A stretch of 26,272 nt of DNA from Candidatus Woesearchaeota archaeon. GTDB lineage: Archaea; Nanobdellota; Nanobdellia; CAYMVK01; CAYYFB01. Positions 3,516 to 26,125 of this stretch are shown here, one piece after another (position 1 is the stretch's first letter; every line of letters starts with the position of its first letter). The stretch covers positions 1 to 26,272 of the forward strand of contig CAYYFB010000005.1 in NCBI GenBank assembly GCA_964471255.1, in the 5' to 3' direction. The notes below the pieces were generated by a model. That model ran no database searches. It worked only from the letters and a program-made list of their open reading frames with translations, and was not told where the DNA came from. The translations under genes and the position numbers were made by a program.

Positions 3516-3593
3516 GCGGCGGTCGTCTAGCCTGGACTAGGACGCCGGCCCCCCAAGCCGGAGACCCGGGTTCAAATCCCGGCCGCCGCACCA
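3516..3593 (+). tRNA. tRNA-Gly(CCC), CCA encoded; integration target (attL side)
   Basis: GCGGCGG-TC-GTCT-AGCCTGGACTA-GGAC-G-CCGGC-CCCCCAA-GCCGG-AGAC-CCGGG-TTCAAAT-CCCGG-CCGCCGC-A-CCA. Cloverleaf folded by hand. The anticodon loop reads CC-CCC-AA. Confidence 0.8.
3550..3590 (+). repeat. attL core (3' part of tRNA-Gly)
   Basis: CCCCCAAGCCGGAGA-CCCGGGTTCAAATCCCGGCCGCCGCA is repeated at 25595-25636 with one extra T. Confidence 0.85.
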
Positions 3594-3676
3594 CTTATAT
3601 ACCCCCTATATAAATCTTTCCCTGTTGTCCCCGATAAGTTTTATGCCTCTGGGACTGTCCCAAATCATGTGGAAAC

Positions 3677-4978
3677 ATGGGACAGCCAGCTTGTATACTG
3701 GAGGAGTGGCAGGCACGGGAGATACTTCAGTATCTGTATCGTAGACACAGGAGTATCCGAAAACTCGCTGAGTTATTACATACAAGTAAGAGTACTTTAC
3801 ACCGGTGTTTGCAAGGGAAACAATCCATACCAGTATCCATAAGAGCTCGCTTATGTGAAGCACTGCCAGAGGAAGAATTACTAGAAGTACTTAAAGGCAA
3901 GGAGCTACTTAGGAAATATGGCTTAATAGATAATGATGGCAGGCTCAACAAAGCACTCCTCCTAGCGCTGATAGATTCGGCCATGCAGGTTGAAACTATA
4001 AAAGAAGAAGTACTCGCCTACCTACTCAAATACTATAAGGGTGAGTTAATGGAGAGATTAGCCGAAACCCTCCCCAAAATAGAGCTGAAATGGAGCGAAG
4101 ACTTCGAGCGATGGCTTACAGAGAAGAAGAGTAAGCCAATCAGTGAACGCACACTACGTGATTACCGTAATCTCTGGCGTAACTGTTTAGAGGGAAAGGT
4201 GCTTGGATGGCACCTATTGAAGCAGCTTGAAGGAAACAAAATGATGTGCAGAGACGGAAAATATCATCCCACGGGATGGGCTAGACAGATATTCAGACGC
4301 TACATCAGATACCTATACTCACAGGGCAAAATAGACTGGGACACCTATTCAAGACTCCTCCTAACAATCCCTGGACGCAAATACGGTCGTAAACTCGTTC
4401 AAAAACCCATCCTAAAGGAGGATGTGATAAATACGCTTAAGAAGCTAAGAGGGGCTAAGAGGCTCGACATATACATGCTCTATCTTCTAATACTGTCGTC
4501 TGCTATAAGATTTGAGCATGCACTTAGAGTCCTGAAGAACTGGAGACCAGATGAAATCATCTACGTTAACTATCTCAACCGCAACATAAGAAGACTTGAA
4601 TGCTTCCAAACACACTGCAGATACTATATAGGTAGGGAGAAAGAACGGAAACCTGTTGGTTTCATGTTCTTTCCTCGTCAATTACTAGAGTTAATAGAGA
4701 AATACAAGGATAGACTACCAAGTAAGAGGAGGATAGAGAAAGTAGTGAAGAAATACGGCTGTCTACCACTATCACATATAAGGACATATGCCCTACGGTT
4801 GATACTCCATGCATTAGGCGATAACGATATCTCGAAATTCATACTCAGCAAGTTCGGAGAATTAACGGTCTCAGCAAGACACTATAGAGACCTATTAGAA
4901 GAAGCTGATAAAATGTATCCCACGTACATTCAATATTTAGAAAACGAATTCGGCAATTATCTAGTATCTTCTCCATAG
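3677..4978 (+). CDS. int: Tyrosine recombinase/integrase (unsplit, pNOB8-like integration mode) with N-terminal HTH
   Basis: 433 aa. HTH 'IRKLAELLHTSKSTLHRCLQG'. Candidate catalytic residues lie in 'SSAIRFEHAL' (R), 'HIRTYALRLIL' (HxxR) and 'SARHYRDLL' (Y). It is adjacent to attL. Confidence 0.85.
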   Translation: MGQPACILEEWQAREILQYLYRRHRSIRKLAELLHTSKSTLHRCLQGKQSIPVSIRARLCEALPEEELLEVLKGKELLRKYGLIDNDGRLNKALLLALIDSAMQVETIKEEVLAYLLKYYKGELMERLAETLPKIELKWSEDFERWLTEKKSKPISERTLRDYRNLWRNCLEGKVLGWHLLKQLEGNKMMCRDGKYHPTGWARQIFRRYIRYLYSQGKIDWDTYSRLLLTIPGRKYGRKLVQKPILKEDVINTLKKLRGAKRLDIYMLYLLILSSAIRFEHALRVLKNWRPDEIIYVNYLNRNIRRLECFQTHCRYYIGREKERKPVGFMFFPRQLLELIEKYKDRLPSKRRIEKVVKKYGCLPLSHIRTYALRLILHALGDNDISKFILSKFGELTVSARHYRDLLEEADKMYPTYIQYLENEFGNYLVSSP

Positions 4979-4997: not shown

Positions 4998-5867
4998 ATG
5001 AAGAAGAGTCGAGTTGTCGCAGTAGTCGCTGTAGTTGTCGTTGTGCTCGTGGTACTTGCTATGCTCATGCACGTACCCCCGTTCACTGGTAATGGTAGTC
5101 CGGTCTCCACGCCATCAACCCCGTCTGGCACCAGCACCGGCACCAGCCCATCAACCAGCACCACTGCCCCTGGCTATGTCAAGCTCGACAGCCTCAACGG
5201 CACAATAGTATCGCTGAACGGCGAGGAGATAACCGAGCAGTTATGGTCTAAGATGAGGGACTACAACGCCGGCGACCCAGCAGTAAAACCCTACATAGAC
5301 TGGCTCCGCAAAGCCCTCGCACCCGAACCACACGATGCACTCAATGTCCCTTGGTACCCAAGGTATAGGTACTACTGGTTCAACGACAGACACGGCTGGA
5401 GCGTACCGCTACCATATGAAGACAGCATAACGAGGATAGGATTGGTCAAGCTACCGTTTGGGGTAGGGCTAGTAGTAACAGCCTATCATGCCAGCGACGG
5501 CTTAACCATAATAGTGCACGGCACAGTAATTAACGAAACCGAGTGGAGAGAGTTGCTGAGCAGAACTGTTGCTTTCGCTCCCTATCCATCACCGCCTATT
5601 TACGGGTGGGAATCTTGGGGCGTCATGGCCGGAGACTTCTATAATAATCCTAAAGCAAGATACATTACTAACTGGGTGCTCTGGAGAATTAGCCTCGAAG
5701 GACACGGGAGCTACCTAGATACAGGTAAAGTAAAGGCACCAATCAAGAAAGTTGTTGTCCTCATAGAGATGCCGGTACACGAGAGATATCTTGGCTCTCT
5801 GACGATGACTGGTACTTGCAAAGCGCTGAAGCAGTATACTGGGCAGTACTGGGAGAGCCAGCATTAG
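4998..5867 (+). CDS. Secreted/membrane-anchored protein with Ser/Thr/Pro-rich linker
   Basis: N-terminal hydrophobic segment 'VVAVVAVVVVVLVVLAMLM' is followed by 'SPVSTPSTPSGTSTGTSPSTSTTAPG'. G+C is much higher than in the surrounding sequence. It may continue into 5816-6624 through frame shifts. Confidence 0.6.
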   Translation: MKKSRVVAVVAVVVVVLVVLAMLMHVPPFTGNGSPVSTPSTPSGTSTGTSPSTSTTAPGYVKLDSLNGTIVSLNGEEITEQLWSKMRDYNAGDPAVKPYIDWLRKALAPEPHDALNVPWYPRYRYYWFNDRHGWSVPLPYEDSITRIGLVKLPFGVGLVVTAYHASDGLTIIVHGTVINETEWRELLSRTVAFAPYPSPPIYGWESWGVMAGDFYNNPKARYITNWVLWRISLEGHGSYLDTGKVKAPIKKVVVLIEMPVHERYLGSLTMTGTCKALKQYTGQYWESQH

Positions 5868-6003
5868 CACTAGCTATGAATATAGCATACCAGCCAGACA
5901 CGGATATCTGGCGCCTGTACAGGACAATAACGGTATCAATGACCAAAAGCGTAGTAACTACTGACACGCATCACGCAGAGGAAGAAGGCCCGATGGCTGG
6001 TTC

Positions 6004-6624
6004 ATGTCAAAGACTATAGAGCCGGGGGTTGATATGTCGCCAGTCATGCTTAGAGCATTCAAGGCAGGCGTTTGTGCCGACTACACATCTGCTACTACAC
6101 TCTTCGCATCAAACGCCCTAGGTGCAATAACATCCGCTGTATCCTTACCCTCTCCTAGTGGTATAGGTCATGCACTTTCAGTTCTAGTCCTTCCGTCGAG
6201 TACATTCCGGGCATACGATATAAGATTGCCACTCGACGCTGACCACGACGGCAAGAACGAAACCGGGATAGTAATAGTTGATACCGCAGGCCTAGAAGCA
6301 TCCTACATAAATGATAAAATGGAGGACGTCCAGCTTATCTTACCGTTTATGTGGAACTATAACGAAAATGTAGATGAATGCGTGGAGCGGTATGGATACA
6401 ACCTGTACTGGGTCGGCGTCGCCCAGAGCGACATGGGTCTTCCGAGATGGCTTAAGATGCCTTGGCTTCCAGAGATAATGAGGATGATTAACTATGCCCG
6501 CATAGTTGGCGAGGCACGTAAAGTATTCATTGAGAATTACTACCGACCTGAAGCCGTATTCTACCCAATGCCCGTAGAGCAATTCGTAAAAACAGTAGCT
6601 AACCTTACGGCAATCAAGATGTGA
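6004..6624 (+). CDS. Hypothetical protein, possible transglutaminase-like Cys-His-Asp fold
   Basis: 'AGVCADYTSATTLF...GIGHALSVLVL...VIVDTAG' resembles the C...H...D spacing of transglutaminase-like cysteine peptidases. Assignment is weak and by eye. The frame is open upstream to 5965. Confidence 0.4.
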   Translation: MSKTIEPGVDMSPVMLRAFKAGVCADYTSATTLFASNALGAITSAVSLPSPSGIGHALSVLVLPSSTFRAYDIRLPLDADHDGKNETGIVIVDTAGLEASYINDKMEDVQLILPFMWNYNENVDECVERYGYNLYWVGVAQSDMGLPRWLKMPWLPEIMRMINYARIVGEARKVFIENYYRPEAVFYPMPVEQFVKTVANLTAIKM

Positions 6625-6633
6625 ACAGAGTAC

Positions 6634-7578
6634 ATGCCTCCCGGCTACACTCTAGGCGTCAGCAAGGTAGTAGGCAGGATACCGGTAGTTGATGCCGGGG
6701 AAACACCGAGTCTCTGCAATACATCAGTAGTCTGCCATACAGTAGAGTTCAAAATAGTGCTCAGCAGTGGCGACGGCAAACACTACACCGGCTCGGTGGT
6801 CGCCAATGCTAGAAACATTACGGTATCGGCAACGCTCATCACCTACCTAAGAGACTTTAACGAGTACGTTATGAACACGACGATATACATCGACGGCACA
6901 CCGGTCTTTCATGCCGATGAGCTGAGATTAGTGTACTCGCTCTACACGGGAAGCTGTTCAAAGACAGTCCCAGTCGAGTACAACAACGAACCCATAGCAT
7001 ACATACTTACTCTGGAACTCTCAACCACCAATAAGAACGAAAATAACGACACAGGAAGCGAAAACAACACCAGCCCCGGCAACAAAGTAGTCAACACTAT
7101 CGTCCAGCTATCACCAATATACATCAACGAATCCACGTCTTGGGGCGAGATGCCTGTGCTGGATAGGCTGGTGGGCACCAGTATAGTTAACGCAACCAAC
7201 ATCACGGTCGAGGCCTTCTATACGGGGGACGGTTACGATGTCCATATTTATATCAATAGCACGCACGCCTTCGACACCCATACAGCTCTCCCTGCAACAC
7301 TAGAGTTCAGCTACGACGGAGCAGAGTATCGGATAGATGTTATACTACCTAGTCCACCAGTACTCAACCAGACCATTACATCAGAACTTGTACCAGTAGA
7401 TGAGACGCAGGTGGCCCTGCCGAACGGCACGGTAGTTAATGTAATCATCTACATGGTGAACCAAACAACAAAGATAGAGATAAACAACATAACCATAGTG
7501 GTGTACGGCTACGTGTCGAGGCTACAGATAGATTTGGATATATACGTGTTCGGCGTTCCCCAGCAGAGTATAATGTAA
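6634..7578 (+). CDS. Extracellular protein rich in N-glycosylation sequons
   Basis: 314 aa with about 13 N-x-S/T sequons (NTS, NIT, NTT, NDT, NES, NAT, NST, NQT, NGT...). An open frame continues in another phase to the stop at 7737-7739. Confidence 0.6.
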   Translation: MPPGYTLGVSKVVGRIPVVDAGETPSLCNTSVVCHTVEFKIVLSSGDGKHYTGSVVANARNITVSATLITYLRDFNEYVMNTTIYIDGTPVFHADELRLVYSLYTGSCSKTVPVEYNNEPIAYILTLELSTTNKNENNDTGSENNTSPGNKVVNTIVQLSPIYINESTSWGEMPVLDRLVGTSIVNATNITVEAFYTGDGYDVHIYINSTHAFDTHTALPATLEFSYDGAEYRIDVILPSPPVLNQTITSELVPVDETQVALPNGTVVNVIIYMVNQTTKIEINNITIVVYGYVSRLQIDLDIYVFGVPQQSIM

Positions 7579-7775
7579 CTGTTGAGGGACTCAACGCAAC
7601 AACCAGTATGGAGTACAGCGGAGCATTTCATGTATACATACACTACCAAGCACCACGAGAACAGCTAATACCCATCGGCACACAGGTGAAGATAACGATA
7701 CAGCCCTTGAGCCTAATAATATCAGTAAGAATAGTCTGACTCTTATTCGTCCTTGGAATTCTCCATTATTTTGAA

Positions 7776-8111
7776 CTATTTTAATGCGGAAATCACTAGT
7801 GCAACTGCTCTTCCTAATGCTACGGATAGTGATATAGCACCTACTATTCTAAGTATATCTATGCCATAACTTGCCATCACGAGCCCTACCATTATAAAGA
7901 GCAATAGAATGGTCAGTATTCCTTGATGCTCATCACTAGTGCTCTTCTTTTCTATTAATATGAATATTCCGCTTATTATACCACCTAATGCAAGGAAAGT
8001 ACCTATCCAAGGTGCTGTTAGAATTGAAGCTAGAGATAATGTGCTTAGAAGCATTAATCCTAGTGCGAATAAGAACCCGTAAATTAGTCCGCTTATATAT
8101 TCTTCATCCAT
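7776..8111 (-). CDS. Small integral membrane protein (3 predicted TM helices)
   Basis: 111 aa with three long hydrophobic stretches. It lies 5 nt downstream of the 8117-9427 gene on the same strand. Confidence 0.6.
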   Translation of the reverse strand: MDEEYISGLIYGFLFALGLMLLSTLSLASILTAPWIGTFLALGGIISGIFILIEKKSTSDEHQGILTILLLFIMVGLVMASYGIDILRIVGAISLSVALGRAVALVISALK

Positions 8112-8116
8112 CTATA

Positions 8117-9427
8117 TCACCTCTTGGTAAGATGTTGTTTTAATGAAGATTTCAGTCTTTCGCTATCGTTCTTTAATAGTTCATCAAGTTCGCTTACTAA
8201 CCTATGTCCCTCTTCTACTAAGGCATCGAAGTTACGTGGGACTCTTATACCTATTGATTCAAGGGTTTCCCTAATTGATTTTTTAACAAACGTTACTATA
8301 TACTCGGAGCCTTCGTAGTAGAAGTGAGTGAATCTTGGCACTATGTTTAGCGACCAGTCGCTTAGCCATATACCCTTAATCATATCCTCCAGTGTGTAGC
8401 CGTGTCTTTTCGCATGTTCTAGTTCTTTCCTAAGCTCCGATAAAACCTCTTCTTCAGTCTTATCAGCAAACTCGTTGATTTCTATAATCTTTCCTAGCTC
8501 ATCCTCATACACTATATACTTTGGTTTTCCTTTCTTCTCCTTAAATGAGAAATATGTTGCTACTATACTGTCGAGAATCATTCCTGCTCTTGCTAGCTTA
8601 TACAACTGCATGAGTTTATTCCTTCTCTCCTTGCCAAGAATAGGCTCTAAATAGTTCATAACTCTCTCTACAATATCCTCGTCATAAATTCTCATGTGTG
8701 CTAATAACATAGCATCACTATCGCCCTCTTCGATAGAATATCTCAGTTGGTCGTAGAGTTCTCTTTCATCTTCGGTTTCGTCAATGAGGTGTCTAGGCGG
8801 ATAAGCAACAAGCACAATCTTTTCTAGTTCTCTGATTTTACGCCAAACCTCTTTATCCTCGCCACTCATAATTAATGCTTCGTCAATTACTCCTGAAGTA
8901 TTAACAGACTTATTGAGTAGCTTCTCACCGAAATCAACGTACTCTCTTATCACATCAACTAGTATCGGTTGTCCATTAACTTCTTTTGGAATATGCCTTA
9001 TGAGTATCTTATATAGTTCAGCTATTTCCCGAGCTGGTAGTCCGTCTCCATCAATGCCTGAACGCTCTCCAATGATGTAGGGTAAGCTGTTTAATATGAA
9101 CTCCCTTACTGCAATGTAGGGTATAGGGGCCTTCTTAACGTCTTTTGACATCTTAGCGGTTATACCTAACTCGACGATTGCATTGAATATATTGGCGAGC
9201 CTTATCAATAAAACCTCTAATATTGCTTTATAGATAGGGTTTTCTTCTATATTGCGTGGTAGACCGAATATAATTCCTTCAACAAGAGTCCATAAGTGCT
9301 CGCCAATTCTCCATTCATATATCATTGAGTCTCCGTATTTCTCACGTATCTCTCTAATAAGCTCGCTTACTTGGAATGATTTCGGCGTTATCTTTAGCCT
9401 ATACTTGCCTCTCTCCACTTGCTCCAA
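8117..9427 (-). CDS. Large hypothetical protein with N-terminal winged-helix-like region (5' end unresolved)
   Basis: 436-aa ORF. The same frame stays open upstream without a start codon ('KKGSILKFKDIHEEFVKNGIVFNIRHRGNTRRILRQLIEKGYLEQVERGKYRL', wHTH-like). A second frame carries a GTG at 9642. The two would join at the T6 run at 9549-9554. Confidence 0.6.
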   Translation of the reverse strand: MEQVERGKYRLKITPKSFQVSELIREIREKYGDSMIYEWRIGEHLWTLVEGIIFGLPRNIEENPIYKAILEVLLIRLANIFNAIVELGITAKMSKDVKKAPIPYIAVREFILNSLPYIIGERSGIDGDGLPAREIAELYKILIRHIPKEVNGQPILVDVIREYVDFGEKLLNKSVNTSGVIDEALIMSGEDKEVWRKIRELEKIVLVAYPPRHLIDETEDERELYDQLRYSIEEGDSDAMLLAHMRIYDEDIVERVMNYLEPILGKERRNKLMQLYKLARAGMILDSIVATYFSFKEKKGKPKYIVYEDELGKIIEINEFADKTEEEVLSELRKELEHAKRHGYTLEDMIKGIWLSDWSLNIVPRFTHFYYEGSEYIVTFVKKSIRETLESIGIRVPRNFDALVEEGHRLVSELDELLKNDSERLKSSLKQHLTKR

Positions 9428-10816: not shown

Positions 10817-11188
10817 ATGGGGCCGCCCGCACTGAAGCATCCGGAGTGGTTTCTCCGGAACATTGTTAATCGGTCACTTAGTATGATAAAGTACGGTAGA
10901 CCGCCGAGGATGATTCGGTTAGTGCCCGGCCTCGCTATCCCGGAGTACATGGGTTTCCTACTAGTCCTCTGCGAGCCAGTAGGCTACGCCCGGAGAGCGG
11001 TGGAGGCTGGAGACCTCCTAAGGATAGACTACCATCCACCCTACCTAGAGCTACGGTGCAGAGACGTAGAGAAAACAGTCGAGGAGGCCCGGTGGAGGCT
11101 GAGAGTCTACAGGGGCAAAAACCACATCACAATAACAGACGGCACCTACAAAGCAAGAATATATCTAGAATGCTGGAAGAAACAATGA
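10817..11188 (+). CDS. Hypothetical protein (G+C-rich gene)
   Basis: 123-aa ORF with no competing ORF. Its codon composition differs from that of its neighbours. No motif recognised. Confidence 0.45.
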   Translation: MGPPALKHPEWFLRNIVNRSLSMIKYGRPPRMIRLVPGLAIPEYMGFLLVLCEPVGYARRAVEAGDLLRIDYHPPYLELRCRDVEKTVEEARWRLRVYRGKNHITITDGTYKARIYLECWKKQ

Positions 11189-11666: not shown

Positions 11667-12503
11667 CTATGGGTCTATGGGAATCTCATATATTTTGTCA
11701 AATGTTCTCAGGTCCTTGCTTACAGCTCTCTCCAGCTTTGTGATAATATTGTTTAATGAAATGTATATAGATGTGGTTACTATGTTTGACCCCAGTACAA
11801 CTAGTTCTATATTCGTATTTCTACATATTTCAATGTCCTTCATATCCTCGCCTATGTTCCGTTTGATTATTTCTGAAAGCTGTTCTGGTTCGTAGTATAC
11901 ATACGGTATATCTATTACGCTTACTGGTGTTCTAAAAGCTATGGATTCAATCGCCAAACTCTTCGGGTCAAGAACTACGTCTATGAGGTGAATGTAGGCT
12001 ATAGATGCCGTTGTTATCCAACCTACATGTCGCGATTCCCCACGTTCCGTTACCCATGGGTTAGCGAAGAATGGAGTGTAGTTAATATAGTAACGAACAG
12101 AATTGTCATCTTTGTGCAGGTATGCGTAGAGCATGGCTAGGGCTGTATGATTAAATGAAGGCCCCCGTTTTAGGAATAGAAAGTATCTTTGAAACTCAAC
12201 CCTCAGCAATACAGATACGAACACCTTGTCTTTATACTTAAAGGATTTTGAAGCAGGTGTTACGACAATAGCTTGAGGAACTGGTTTAACCCATGAGCTT
12301 TGTTGTAGCATTGTTATACCTAGGGTTAGGAGCGATGAACCCATAACAACAAATGCTTCAACAGGAGCCAGAATCCTTGTTAGGCTAAGAGCTAGCACCA
12401 AAGTACCTAAAATAAACAGTATTATAGATAGAAACGCTGTTAATGGGAACTCAGACCTCATTCTTAGCCTTATTGGGCCAGTATCTTTTTGCAATTCATC
12501 CAT
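11667..12503 (-). CDS. Hypothetical membrane protein (2 N-terminal TM helices plus soluble domain)
   Basis: 278-aa ORF. Hydrophobic segments 'LTAFLSIILFILGTLVLALSL' and 'VEAFVVMGSSLLTLGITML'. No family recognised. Confidence 0.55.
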   Translation of the reverse strand: MDELQKDTGPIRLRMRSEFPLTAFLSIILFILGTLVLALSLTRILAPVEAFVVMGSSLLTLGITMLQQSSWVKPVPQAIVVTPASKSFKYKDKVFVSVLLRVEFQRYFLFLKRGPSFNHTALAMLYAYLHKDDNSVRYYINYTPFFANPWVTERGESRHVGWITTASIAYIHLIDVVLDPKSLAIESIAFRTPVSVIDIPYVYYEPEQLSEIIKRNIGEDMKDIEICRNTNIELVVLGSNIVTTSIYISLNNIITKLERAVSKDLRTFDKIYEIPIDP

Positions 12504-12859
12504 ACCCTCCTGTAATATTTTAGCTAGAGCAACTATACGATTCCCACTATATTCTTATACTATAGTGTTTAACCATATTTAGCGAGTTAAGCAGGTTATC
12601 AGCGATAATCAACATGTTACTGCTATAATGGCTACATGCAGAACTACATAGATAAATCATTAACATTAATGAATAGCAGACACATTGCAGATTTATAACG
12701 TGGGGTGTCGCACAGCTTAAAAGGTTGCGACATAGCTTTAGGAATGTACTATTTATACGGACTATTAAGGAGTAATAATACTCAACGGATGAAAAACGTT
12801 CAGAAACAACCGTTGCCCGTAGTGCCTCACTCCCTGCTAGACCTGTCTAGTGCTTAGTG

Positions 12860-13320
12860 TTCATGGCCGGATTTCATTAAATTATCCCTATAGATACCTT
12901 GGCGGAATCCCTGTAGAAATCCGCCGGAATCTGTTGGAGCGAGACCCAGATTTCTTCACAGTTTCCGCCGCATTTCTATCCCAGAGCCCGGCGAACTTCT
13001 TAGGGGATAATCTCAAATTATCTATATAGATTCCATGCCGAAGACCCCTAGAGAAACCATAGGATTTAAGACTTCCATCTCCGCCGCAGTCCGCAGCGGA
13101 CCGGGGCTGATACCATCAACCGTGTAATAATTCTTATCGTAAGCCGGGATAATTTGATGATATCTAGGGGGATTCCATTGCGGAATCTATGGGGAAACAC
13201 GTTGGAAATCCTCGGGGAGCCCGGCAAGGTATCCGTTTTGTGGAAGGTAATAAAACGCAGCGGACGAAAGACGCTCAAAACAATTCGTGTGAAAAACATT
13301 ACGGATAGAATCCGACTAAA
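12860..13320. repeat. G+C-rich non-coding island with clustered short direct/inverted repeats (iteron-like array or structured RNA)
   Basis: GGAATC/GATTCC at 12904, 12926, 13029, 13171 and 13182. Palindrome GATTCC-ATTGC-GGAATC at 13171-13187. Hairpin GGCGGA..TCCGCC at 12901-12925. A 20-nt direct repeat at 12879-12898 vs 13015-13034 (17/20). ATTATCCC/GGGATAAT at 12881, 13004 and 13146. GATACCTTG (12893) vs CAAGGTATC (13225). Confidence 0.6.
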
Positions 13321-13542
13321 AACTATGCGTATAAAATAATAAAGGTAATGGTGCTGGGAATTATAATTTAAGCGATTGCTTTATGGTAGATTGTGAAAAA
13401 CATCAGATAATACTTTATCGAGTTTAGCTTTAATTTAAATGTGATGTTTCTTCAAGCGATTTGCTGGGATTATATATCTTGTTATATCTTTTAGAATTAC
13501 AGGTTATATTGAAGTTTATAAATATTATATCTATTGTTACTT

Positions 13543-13986
13543 ATGAGGAAGAGGGGGATAGTTAAAAATGGTGAACGATGCGTGAGGAAGTGGTCAGCAC
13601 AATTCATTCTGAAACCCATTTGTGAAGCCATTGCTGGGTTTCGTGGTGAATTAGTTTTTGGTGACTACAAGCTCTGGTTTGACGATAAAAAGTGGGTGTT
13701 TTATGGAGAAGTATCTAAGGAGCTAAATATAGAGGAACCTGACAAAGCTAGAAAGATACTTGCTGAAAGAATTGAGCAAGAATTACTACCATATCTCATA
13801 GTTGTTACTGGTTGCGGAATACAGTTTAACCCCGACAACATGAGTCTACGATACGAAAAGCTTGGAACTATAGGCATTGTAGTATCTAGTGTTGTTAGAA
13901 TCCATGCTGTAGTAGGGGTGAAGAGAACTCTCGAAGAGTTTAGAAAAGAGCTGGAACTATACATCGACGCAGCTAGAGGTTTTTGA
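13543..13986 (+). CDS. Hypothetical protein, probable N-terminal part of the downstream HEPN-like protein
   Basis: The ORF ends in a T5 run (13980-13984). Removing one T fuses it in frame to 14009-14395 ('...YIDAARGFDNIKREWFLRALRFW...'). Confidence 0.5.
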   Translation: MRKRGIVKNGERCVRKWSAQFILKPICEAIAGFRGELVFGDYKLWFDDKKWVFYGEVSKELNIEEPDKARKILAERIEQELLPYLIVVTGCGIQFNPDNMSLRYEKLGTIGIVVSSVVRIHAVVGVKRTLEEFRKELELYIDAARGF

Positions 13987-16911: not shown

Positions 16912-17318
16912 AACTAGGCACCCATATTCAAATATAGTCTCTCATAAATTATTGTTTCCGGACTTTCAAGACCATAGTTCAAGACCATACTAGCATACTT
17001 AATAATATAGAAGCACAAATCCAAGCACATTCTTGGGTAGACGCAAGCCCTTGAGACTATTCCGAGAGGGGATGCGTCTACCTGACCGGAGATGATGTGA
17101 CACTTAGAGCTGAGCATGCTGTCGGCGGCTTTTAAGTGTAGGTGTCGTGTTGTTTATATGCGACATTTGGATACGAGCCGTTATAGCTTAGGAGTTTACC
17201 TGGTTTTAATGTTAAATTAGCGATGGTGTTTATCTTGATAGTTTAAAGGGTTCTAGTCATTTTTGTCCATCATAATTACGCTACCTTCCCTATCTAGTTC
17301 TAGTGGAGGTGGTGTCTG

Positions 17319-18035
17319 GTGAGTGTTGTTGAGGAAAAGGAGGCAAGGACACTTACCAGGAAGAATATTGATAAGCCCCGCCAAGAGTCTTTCGGGCTCG
17401 ATAGAAGGGTGCTAGTTGCTCACCCCGGTGATAGAGTTGGCTTCTCAGTCCGGATTAATGGGCCTCCAAGACATGTTGTGAGTGTGGAGGTTAGAGGTAT
17501 ACCTTCTAGTGTAGCCGAGGTGACAGTAAGCCCTTATAGAGCTGTAGCTCCATATACAGCGGAGATATCATTAGCTGTTAGAGGATATGCTGAGCCTGGT
17601 CTCTATCCCTTCATCGTAGTAATCAATAATATAACTATAGGTCGACCTATTGGAGTAGAGAAACTAGGCCCCCTCATTCTGCCAAGAGAGCTCTCACTAA
17701 GCCAATATGCAAGGCTAAGAAGATTGTACTACCGAGAAAAGCTGGGGGCACAGGGAGTCCTATGGTACCTAATAGCCAGGGTCTATAAGAACGAGGCTAG
17801 CTTTATGGAACTGAAAAGGGTCTACGAGTTTATACGAGGAGGTCCAATAAGGAAAGCTACGATAGCGAAGATACTCAAACAAATGATTAGGAAAGACCTC
17901 ATCAAGAAGGATAAAGACGGAAAATATTACCCGGTAGTGGCTAGAGAGGAGATAGCATTTAGTAGGATAAACCGAAGTAGGGTCAGAATACGTCATACTA
18001 CAGAGAAAACAGTAGGGAAAGCGAAAGAGAGCTAG
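17319..18035 (+). CDS. Hypothetical protein with C-terminal winged-helix-like segment
   Basis: GTG start preceded by GGAGGTGG. 'FMELKRVYEFIRGGPIRKATIAKILKQMIRKDLIKKDKDGKYYPV' looks like a wHTH. A stop-free frame (17981-18301, 89+ codons, no start codon) continues it after a frame change. Confidence 0.55.
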   Translation: MSVVEEKEARTLTRKNIDKPRQESFGLDRRVLVAHPGDRVGFSVRINGPPRHVVSVEVRGIPSSVAEVTVSPYRAVAPYTAEISLAVRGYAEPGLYPFIVVINNITIGRPIGVEKLGPLILPRELSLSQYARLRRLYYREKLGAQGVLWYLIARVYKNEASFMELKRVYEFIRGGPIRKATIAKILKQMIRKDLIKKDKDGKYYPVVAREEIAFSRINRSRVRIRHTTEKTVGKAKES

Positions 18036-18293
18036 AAACACGAGTAGGTAGACACGGGCCATATGAAGCCAGATTAGCTTTCAAAAGAGCGTGGAAGATA
18101 GCTCTGAAGCATAATAGTCTGGTAGCTGCATATTTCTTAGTCTATAGCTTATTAGGTGTTAGAGAAACTGGTATTCTACTCCTATGGCTCAACGCCATGT
18201 TCGTATACTGTGAGCAGAAGACTGGGTTCTGCCATTACTTCTATTCCAGCTACTTCACCAATATTTTCAACTACGGGCTTGAAGCAAGGTATA

Positions 18294-18638
18294 ATGTATA
18301 GAGACACGATAGAGTACCAGAAAGCGATACAGACAGCGAACAAGTATATCAGGAAACACTATAGGAGTCATCAGGTTGCACGCCGACTACATTATAAATT
18401 AAAAGAGGAGAAGTATATAGAATATGATGACGATGTACTCAACCTAGAAATAATACGCTATAATGATGGTGATATAGGCCTTAGAATATGGGACAACAGT
18501 ATGGAGGAGATATTATACGAAGAAAACATAGTAAACAAGACAATAACTAAGACGGAAATCAAGCCAGCTTATCCATTCGAACACGTATATCAGCATAACG
18601 AAGAAACATACCTCTATAAACCAGGAGGCATATACTAG
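18294..18638 (+). CDS. Small hypothetical protein
   Basis: ATG 18294 overlaps the stop (18299-18301) of the preceding open frame (ATGTATAG). The tracked TTG 18156 start lies in sequence that is better explained by the other frame. Confidence 0.45.
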   Translation: MYRDTIEYQKAIQTANKYIRKHYRSHQVARRLHYKLKEEKYIEYDDDVLNLEIIRYNDGDIGLRIWDNSMEEILYEENIVNKTITKTEIKPAYPFEHVYQHNEETYLYKPGGIY

Positions 18639-25156: not shown

Positions 25157-25594
25157 GAAGGATTCACCAAGATTAAATAGAATTAAGCTGGTTATTTATT
25201 TCTTTTTAGGTTAAACCCTTTCATATTATATAGCGTAATGTATGTTAGATAGTCTGTAATATCGTGTGGCAGTAATCCTTCTGCGTTTCTACTCATAGAG
25301 GCTATGGTGATAACATTCAAGTAACATGTTCTCAATATTCTTTGCTTCATTCTGATGAGAATAAATGAAAAAACAAATCGGGCTAACCCATCTCTATAGC
25401 TCACTATTAACAGCTTCAGCAAAATCCTTCCAGTAATTTTATAAGATAACATCTATGTCACGCTTCCTCGAACTCCTTGGCCCAACTACTAAGTAATGGA
25501 ATAACGTCCCATATACTAGATAATAGGTATAAAAACTATACCTAACTGTCCCGGATTAATATCAACTGTTGGGACAAAACCTCGAAGGAACCAG

Positions 25595-25636
25595 CCCCCA
25601 AGCCGGAGATCCCGGGTTCAAATCCCGGCCGCCGCA
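25595..25636 (+). repeat. attR core: displaced 3' fragment of tRNA-Gly
   Basis: CCCCCAAGCCGGAGATCCCGGGTTCAAATCCCGGCCGCCGCA. There is no matching tRNA 5' half upstream. It is in the same orientation as the intact tRNA. Confidence 0.85.
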
Positions 25637-26125
25637 TAACATTTATTGAAAACATTTATTTAGTGCTCCATTTATTCATAGAAACCTCTTTATTATCGTA
25701 TTGTATAGCTGTGTTAATGTATATAATGCCTTGATAAAAACCTCTATGCAATAACTTGATCGGATAAAATGGTTACATACTAACATTAGTGATTTTAAGT
25801 ACAATCTTATACTTTTAAGAACTACTATATGGAATTAGTGAAGGACTAGTATTCTTTATACCATTAATAACTGCTATAAATATACCCTTACTTATAATAT
25901 ATCTATTCTTAAATCTCTTCAACGTAAATGAACTTATGGACTATATAATATTATAATATATAAATAACTTGTTTAAGTTAGTCTTCGTAGCTATAGATTT
26001 ACTTTTCAATCTAGGAATTTTGATCAAAGTAATTATATTTATATAATTGTTTAGCTTTTACTACCATAACATACATGCGTAATTTAATCTAAAAGACTAT
26101 CTTTAGCTACTCTCTGAGGAATGTT

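Follow-up and report, generated by a model that had tools for sequence, protein, structure and literature searches.

Helically phased dyads and iterons in a gene-free gap of an archaeal mobile defence island

What might be the role of a gene-free island of some 460 bp, dense in short direct and inverted repeats, that lies between two divergent genes of an archaeon? A preliminary description of the sequence had weighed protein-binding iterons against a structured RNA. The window, by which we mean the whole stretch of 26,272 nucleotides analysed here, is contig C5 of an 855-kb archaeal genome (G000; 35.5% G+C, 51 contigs, about 90% complete), and the contigs related to it come from hydrothermal-vent metagenomes. 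We find a genuine and well-ordered array, in which dyads and iterons keep in phase with the helix and which is carried by a mobile defence island, and discuss below which protein might read it and to what effect.

The integrated element and its gene-free gap

The window carries an integrated element of about 22 kb (~3.5-25.6 kb), as indicated by a pair of repeats of the 3' part of tRNA-Gly and by an integrase gene at 3677-4978. The features that define the element and the gap are the following.

3516-3590: tRNA-Gly
3545-3600 and 25591-25646: 56-nt direct repeat equal to the 3' part of tRNA-Gly(CCC), attL and attR
3677-4978: archaeal-type integrase gene, after the tRNA-Gly
11667-12503, minus strand: 278-aa gene, left neighbour of the array
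13330-13533: AT-rich flank (25% G+C), which holds the promoter region of the HEPN-like gene
13534-13986, plus strand: HEPN-like orphan of 147-150 aa, right neighbour of the array

The cargo of the element comprises a short-pAgo trio (with a pAgo of 516 aa), GmrSD, GIY-YIG, an M48 peptidase, HEPN-like defence genes and many orphans. Between the divergent neighbours of the array, 1,030 bp are free of ORFs, where the median ORF-free gap of the genome is 54 nt; a gene-free gap of this length is unusual for the host genome. The left neighbour has two N-terminal transmembrane helices, and is not a candidate for binding DNA. Its family (the gene at 11667-12503 and relatives P0002-P0007) consists of conserved two-TM proteins with an invariant YTPFFANPW...HVGW core; the family recurs beside short-pAgo clusters in several vent metagenomes, and may be a pAgo-associated effector that has so far gone unrecognised.

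Two other loci of the genome were noted in passing. ORF-free gaps of 1-2 kb occur elsewhere, for example at C3:72810-74756, and C11:4443-4595 holds 2.4 copies of a repeat with a 61-nt period, whose unit contains GGATTGAAAG and which resembles a small CRISPR array.

The island had been singled out as being richer in G+C than its surroundings, and this had been read as a possible signature of a structured RNA in an AT-rich thermophile. The excess over the flanks is real (47% vs 34% and 25%), but the island merely equals the element's own coding blocks at 4998-7578 and 10817-11188 (47-53%), while the structural RNAs of the host lie far above it (RNase P RNA, at C1:149456-149723, 59%; tRNAs, 67-73%); for both reasons the argument from composition to an RNA gene is weak, and in the form in which it had been made it fails. 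A more general caution follows for work of this kind, namely that high G+C in a gene-free island of an AT-rich thermophile does not have to mean an RNA gene if the mobile element around it is itself of foreign composition.

That no convincing ORF lies in the island was confirmed: we found no open frame, no coding signal and no homologue, and the conserved frame expected of a degraded gene is absent. No frame stays open across the island, and none of its stop-free six-frame pieces matches Pfam. A frame piece of 62 aa has no homologue in a set of 5.8 billion proteins; one of 89 aa, searched against 1.8 billion representative proteins, has a single match, to a translated 58-aa tandem satellite, which we judge spurious, the score being inflated by five repeated stretches. 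A run of synonymous-looking differences (GGAATCCCT vs GGGATTCCA) had hinted at coding repeats; these were rejected on an ungapped alignment that lacks 3-periodicity, on the period of 23 and on the lack of a homologue. Nor is the island a decayed form of the 323-aa gene that lies upstream in a related island (L011), to which it has no similarity.

Anatomy of the array

Every repeat listed in the preliminary description was recovered in its place. This includes the five GGAATC/GATTCC hexamers of the island, the palindrome GATTCC-ATTGC-GGAATC (13171-13187), the GGCGGA...TCCGCC pair (12901-12925), the 20-nt direct repeat at 12879 and 13015, the long-range complement GATACCTTG/CAAGGTATC, and three copies of ATTATCCC/GGGATAAT, of which the 26-kb window holds no others. 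A separate 7-bp hairpin at 12706-12732 is present as well, but lies within chance, with about 1.5 such hairpins estimated per kb.

The repeats are enriched roughly 10-fold over shuffled sequence: eight 6-mers occur at least four times in the island and nine 7-mers at least three times, compared with 0.8 and 1.0 in dinucleotide shuffles. In a comparison with non-coding gaps elsewhere in the window and in related contigs, the island has nine such 7-mers vs 0.27 expected, while the enrichment in those gaps is about 3-fold at most. Nowhere else in the 855-kb genome do GGAATC/GATTCC hexamers cluster as densely (5 in 460 bp vs 0.16 expected), and a core motif, GGWATCTATRGGGA, is present in nine approximate copies within 480 nt, where 0.6 would be expected from a control contig. 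In the autocorrelation of the island, an offset of 23 nt gives the strongest peak (z 4.9, where 95% of the maxima of shuffles lie below 3.5), with sub-peaks at 12 and 46-47 nt. The same offset of 23 gives z 4.9 within 12880-13000, and offsets of 23 and 46 give z 4.7 and 3.6 in the right-hand iteron stretch. As a step of 23 bp is close to two helical turns, successive sites lie on one face of the helix; as 23 is not a multiple of 3, the period is incompatible with a codon repeat.

Alignment of the island with itself resolves it into three diverged tandem units of 136-142 nt (~140), starting at about 12866, 13003 and 13146. The units are 56-59% identical over 70 ungapped nt, with mismatches spread evenly over the three codon phases. 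Each of them opens with a dyad, GGAT-N10-TATC, whose perfect form is GATAAT-N5-ATTATC, and continues with rows of iterons in 23-nt phase. The parts of the array are listed below.

12772-12805, no strand assigned: 34-nt direct repeat, left copy (GTAATAATACTCAACGGATGAAAAACGTTCAGAA)
12866-13002, no strand assigned: unit 1, a degenerate dyad (GGATTTCATTAAATTATCC) followed by iterons, from the three-unit alignment
12885-12952, minus strand: iteron rows of unit 1 at 12885, 12908 and ~12930; core TCCCYRTAGAWAYC, the minus-strand form of GGWATCTATRGGGA
13003-13145, no strand assigned: unit 2, the perfect dyad GATAAT-CTCAA-ATTATC (13006-13022), two iterons and a G+C-rich tail (CCGCCGCAGTCCGCAGCGGACCGGGG)
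13020-13065, minus strand: iteron rows of unit 2 at 13020 and 13043
13146-13300, no strand assigned: unit 3, a dyad (GGGATAATTTGATGATATC), a run of four adjoining 23-nt iterons and, as tail, a repeat of 12772-12805
13161-13252, plus strand: phased iterons of unit 3 at 13161, 13184, 13207 and 13230; consensus WATCYNNGGGGANNC...GG
13247-13280, no strand assigned: 34-nt direct repeat, right copy (79% identity to the left copy, E 5e-5 in self-comparison)

With its copies at 12772 and 13247, the 34-nt repeat brackets the array. The dyad of unit 2 is the sole perfect GATAAT-N4-6-ATTATC in the genome, and the iteron stretch of unit 3 includes, besides the palindrome, a lone string that loosely resembles an ORB (TCCATTGCGGAATCTATGGGG, at 13174). 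The whole array is 100% identical in two other assemblies, with no sign of length polymorphism. The GGWATCTATRGGGA core is found mostly on the minus strand in units 1 and 2 and on the plus strand in unit 3. This opposed arrangement explains why the complementary long-range pairs cross and do not nest, as had been described and as we see for pairs I1, I2 and I4.

The crossing of the pairs bears directly on the view that the island is a structured non-coding RNA of the defence island, which might serve the neighbouring HEPN-like or membrane proteins as a partner or an antitoxin, or be a protein sponge with repeated GGAAUC. The excess of G+C over the flanks and the setting beside a HEPN-like gene would suit such an RNA, as would a TATA-like box at 12752 and a plus strand that runs from 12780 to 13400 with no stretch of at least five T. 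Folded as a single strand, unit 1 does form an imperfect hairpin of 131 nt (12881-13011, -48 kcal/mol, z -3.1). The fold of the whole island, however, reaches z values of just -2.0 and -1.4, units 2 and 3 fold no better than shuffles, and the three units and their diverged relative in another element (L014, see below) have neither a consensus structure nor covariation: consensus folds come to -9.3, -4.9 and -1.8 kcal/mol with covariation terms that are about zero or unfavourable, and the part they have in common is the invariant 5-bp dyad.

Searches for known RNA families likewise gave no support for an RNA. In Rfam 15, the region 12700-13400 has zero matches at the gathering threshold; at E up to 10 it gives just Fibrobacter-1 (14 bits, cut-off 78) and, outside the island, CRISPR-DR44 (24 bits, cut-off 35). 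The latter match (13488-13514) occurs just once in the genome, and we take it to be a probable chance match. The island does not match archaeal SRP RNA (RF01857), for which the entire assembly, about 90% complete, gave no match at E up to 10 either. The earlier preference for protein-binding iterons over one RNA fold thus held up, on the 23-nt phase, the motif in both orientations, a dyad that is invariant without covariation, the absence of an Rfam match and the weak fold z; we consider a structured RNA very improbable.

A diverged relative beside a winged-helix gene

Searches at the DNA level for the island found no further copy in its own genome and none in 40 relatives, in 400 sampled genomes of the class, in phage records or in genome G401. 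When viral, metagenome and genome contigs were scanned with degenerate patterns, chance matches only were obtained; the metagenome and genome scans predate our recognition of the dyad in L014. One bacteriophage intergenic region (L021, an IMG/VR phage contig, 10772-10799) has 17 nt, GAAATCCGCCGGAATCT, in common with the island beyond the searched pattern, which we judge to be a coincidence (about 1-2 chance matches are expected). The neighbouring genes were of little help in finding relatives: homologues of the 278-aa protein, at 56-78% identity, are encoded in other pAgo-bearing islands, none of them with the array upstream, and the 147-aa right neighbour is an orphan that offers no route to relatives.

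A related gap does exist in one of these islands, L014, where 7599-8775 is free of ORFs and G+C-rich (47-50%). L014, L015 and L016 are identical, and thus count as one independent relative. The two have in common a dyad block (GGGGATAACTTCAGATTATCT vs GGGGATAATCTCAAATTATCT), in which the dyad of unit 2 and L014 7889-7909 are identical at 18/21 positions; counted with the three units of the window, GGAT-N10-TATC is unchanged in 4/4 copies. The iteron pair at 13165-13199 is 74% identical over 35 nt to L014 7932-7966, a 23-nt block at 13046-13068 is 83% identical to 8287-8309, and unit 3 aligns without gaps to 7890-7977 at 58% identity, with several shorter common pieces besides. Between the window and the L014 gap there are 3 HSPs of at least 25 bits, compared with 0.05 in 200 dinucleotide shuffles, and the scores of the best three, added up, give z 5.2; the best single local alignment is equalled by 2/300 shuffles (p ~0.007). 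The relative also has a periodicity of its own at 23 and 46 nt (L014 7860-8000; z 4.1 and 4.0). Dyad, iteron core and phase have been kept while the adjacent proteins are 39-73% identical and the remaining gaps cannot be aligned, and this retention points to selection on the candidate binding sites.

The same comparison bears on the view that the island is non-functional repeat DNA, be it what decay has left of an insertion, of a repetitive gene or of a non-autonomous transposon with subterminal binding sites, or a slowly eroding minisatellite. One might expect of such DNA that its units are just 56-59% identical, that the sampled genomes, phage records and contig scans yield no relatives beyond chance, that the array is missing upstream of the other 278-aa homologues and the related gap of L014-L016 lies elsewhere in the locus, and that a nearby gene is split (see below). 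The conservation of dyad, iteron blocks and 23-nt phase in L014 speaks against this view, as do the lack of a reading frame or protein homologue and the complete identity of the two other assemblies. A MITE or other non-autonomous transposon finds no support: the genome has one copy of the island, which lacks terminal repeats plus target duplication, the bracketing 34-nt repeat being far too long for the latter. We regard non-functional DNA as unlikely.

The array of L014 is followed, about 290 nt downstream of its start, by a gene for a 434-aa winged-helix (wHTH) protein, P0011. A homologue of this gene, and a hairpin that precedes it, are found in the window as well.

17036-17082, no strand assigned: hairpin with a 10-bp stem upstream of the wHTH gene; L014 counterpart at 7814-7860
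17319-18638, plus strand: wHTH gene, homologue of the 434-aa P0011 of L014 and candidate binder; tblastn match in three frames with stops inside the match

The sole family signal in P0011 is an MCM_C-like winged helix at residues 154-206; an AlphaFold model of the protein (pLDDT 46) was too poor for use. In the window the gene lies directly upstream of the pAgo trio and is split over three reading frames, leaving the N-terminal 238 aa, with the wHTH, intact; it may be either a pseudogene or a truncated, 238-aa DNA-binding form. Nowhere in the window does the L014 gap match better than at this hairpin (77% over 47 nt, with stem and loop conserved), whose L014 counterpart abuts a unit of dyad and iterons. 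In the window, by contrast, 3.7 kb with HEPN-like genes and a four-gene operon lie between the array and the pair of hairpin and wHTH gene, relative to which the array is inverted.

Relatives of P0011 were sought in 400 + 100 genomes, which gave two distant matches, neither with an upstream gap. Among the three elements compared, array and wHTH gene are both present in the window and in L014, and the third, the related island L011 of genome G401, gave no match to either.

A putative binding platform, a putative origin, and known systems

The island is most likely a site on double-stranded DNA at which a protein binds, the best candidate for the binder probably being the wHTH protein of the P0011 family. 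Tentatively, and with something short of even confidence, we suggest that it acts in cis as a regulatory platform. In each unit, the symmetric site GGATAA...TTATCC, whose half-sites are spaced by about one helical turn as in a classical operator, would come first, and the 23-bp iterons would follow in rows. A dimeric protein encoded by the element might occupy the dyads and spread cooperatively over the iterons, and we propose that the resulting complex controls the divergent defence genes and/or the wHTH-pAgo module.

Much of the evidence for such a platform lies in the architecture described above: repeat enrichment and a 23-nt periodicity above the 95th percentile of shuffle maxima, unit differences without 3-periodicity, a motif used in both orientations, and a dyad that does not change in four copies. 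The gap of L014-L016 adds the same dyad, similar iterons and the same phase, upstream of a wHTH gene, and the joint presence of array and gene in two of the three elements compared would agree with this.

Several observations, however, sit less well with a regulatory platform. In both elements the arrays are 215-360 nt from the nearest start codons (363 nt to the start of the 278-aa gene, about 290 nt to that of the HEPN-like gene, and about 290 nt to the wHTH start in L014), and so neither overlap nor abut a promoter; this is far for a classical archaeal operator. The wHTH gene of the window is distant, split and in inverted orientation. Within the element the core motif is confined to the array, so that there is no sign of a regulon, and the comparison draws on a single independent relative.

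A second explanation is that the array is a replication origin or a centromere-like partition site of the integrative element, with the iterons loading an element-encoded initiator or the host's Orc1/Cdc6 and the adjoining AT-rich DNA melting. Iteron origins and parC-type centromeres are classically laid out in this way, with opposed arrays of phased 22-23-bp iterons. The repeats of 17-23 bp at a step of 22-23 bp that such origins have are present here (23 nt, z 4.9, and the same phase in L014), and the distance of the array from the flanking gene starts would fit an autonomous element. The flank of 25% G+C alongside would be the sole candidate for an unwinding element, but its most AT-rich part (13425-13544) is just the third most AT-rich 120-nt window of the element, and the DNA between the opposed arrays (13066-13158) is G+C-rich and no DUE.

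The proteins that an origin would call for are missing from the element as well. No Rep, primase, helicase, Orc1/Cdc6 or ParA is recognisable in it, and scans with Pfam, PHROGs and NCBIfam found no Rep-like families among its ORFs; where an iteron origin would have its cognate Rep gene adjacent, the neighbours are the two-TM protein and the HEPN-like orphan. Cdc6_C matches lie on contigs C2, C7 and C50, none in the window, and the related island L011 has no match to the array. The replication origin proposed in the preliminary description is thus left without a Rep or Orc1 gene, with a loose likeness to ORBs and with no AT-rich unwinding element between the opposed arrays; we consider an origin or partition site conceivable, if rather unlikely.

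The likeness to ORBs was pursued at the origin of the host itself. At G000:C2:162400-162960, beside orc1/cdc6 (C2:162967-164193), canonical ORBs (TTTCCAYWGGAAAYKAAGGGGT) at C2:162483 and 162617 flank an AT-rich core, a canonical ORB box being TTCCA-N2-3-GGAAA-N4-GGGG. The two ORBs are inverted (TTTCCACTGGAAACTAAGGGGTGGGG and TTTCCATAGGAAATGAAGGGGT) and have mini-ORBs nearby, and a separate motif, GCTCCAGAA, occurs three times round orc1/cdc6. The string TCCATTGCGGAATCTATGGGG of unit 3 fits a loose ORB pattern that has 7 matches in the genome, two of them being the true host ORBs at oriC, and when 1.7 million positions are scored with a PWM derived from the island, one host ORB comes 233rd. Against this, the likeness was noticed post hoc, the spacer of the dyad exceeds that of the host ORBs by 2 nt, and the other host ORB stays below 6 bits; nor does the array have inverted boxes round an AT-rich element beside orc1/cdc6. 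We think it quite improbable, more so than an origin or partition site in general, that the array is the origin or a host-Orc1-recruiting site of an integrative defence element of a DPANN-type archaeon, with 23-bp, loosely ORB-like iterons that would be read with or instead of a family-specific winged-helix protein.

To our knowledge, hardly any work has characterised the mobile elements that DPANN-type and vent archaea carry, and none of their cis-acting sites is defined; we know of no replication origin described for mobile elements of these tiny archaea. The array is a specific stretch of DNA, conserved in part in two elements, for which a candidate binder can be named, a wHTH protein encoded beside short-pAgo modules; it could reveal how such defence islands are regulated or maintained.

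Among known systems, theta-type plasmid origins such as those of R6K, P1, F and RK2 have iterons of 17-22 bp at a step of 22-23 bp, and the parC centromere of R1 has phased repeats of 11 bp. The array resembles both in its tandem repeats at one or two helical turns, its opposed arrays, its non-coding setting on a mobile element and its AT-rich flank. It differs in having no Rep gene or genes of the ParR/ParM type beside it, in its archaeal host and in its super-repeats of ~140 bp that open with a dyad.

In phage lambda, OR1-OR3 are 17-bp dyads at a step of 23-24 bp. Like such repressor operators of phages and plasmids, the array has dyad sites, a spacing of 23 bp, a position between divergent genes and, in L014, an HTH gene beside it. 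Unlike them, its sites lie 215-360 nt from start codons and do not overlap promoters, there are many more of them, and in the window the gene of the putative regulator is split and 3.7 kb away. With Orc1/Cdc6 origins the array has in common repeats in both orientations and one string of unit 3 with TTCCA...GGAAT and a G-run at the distance seen in host ORBs, but most iterons are without the TTCCA half, the dyad spacer is longer by 2 nt, neither a DUE between opposed boxes nor a nearby orc1 is present, and the host ORBs score modestly.

A parallel by position, and one that lends some support to a regulatory platform, is the SiAgo locus of Sulfolobus islandicus, where the HTH protein M164_1615 is predicted to be a regulator (bioRxiv 10.1101/2021.12.09.471704); the passage on that protein describes no binding sites for it. 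P0011 differs in having an additional N-terminal beta domain and a C-terminal part of ~200 aa. In the SiAgo locus, the DNA-binding gene lies immediately upstream of the Ago-Aga trio on a variable island, and the wHTH gene of the window occupies the same position with respect to its own pAgo trio.
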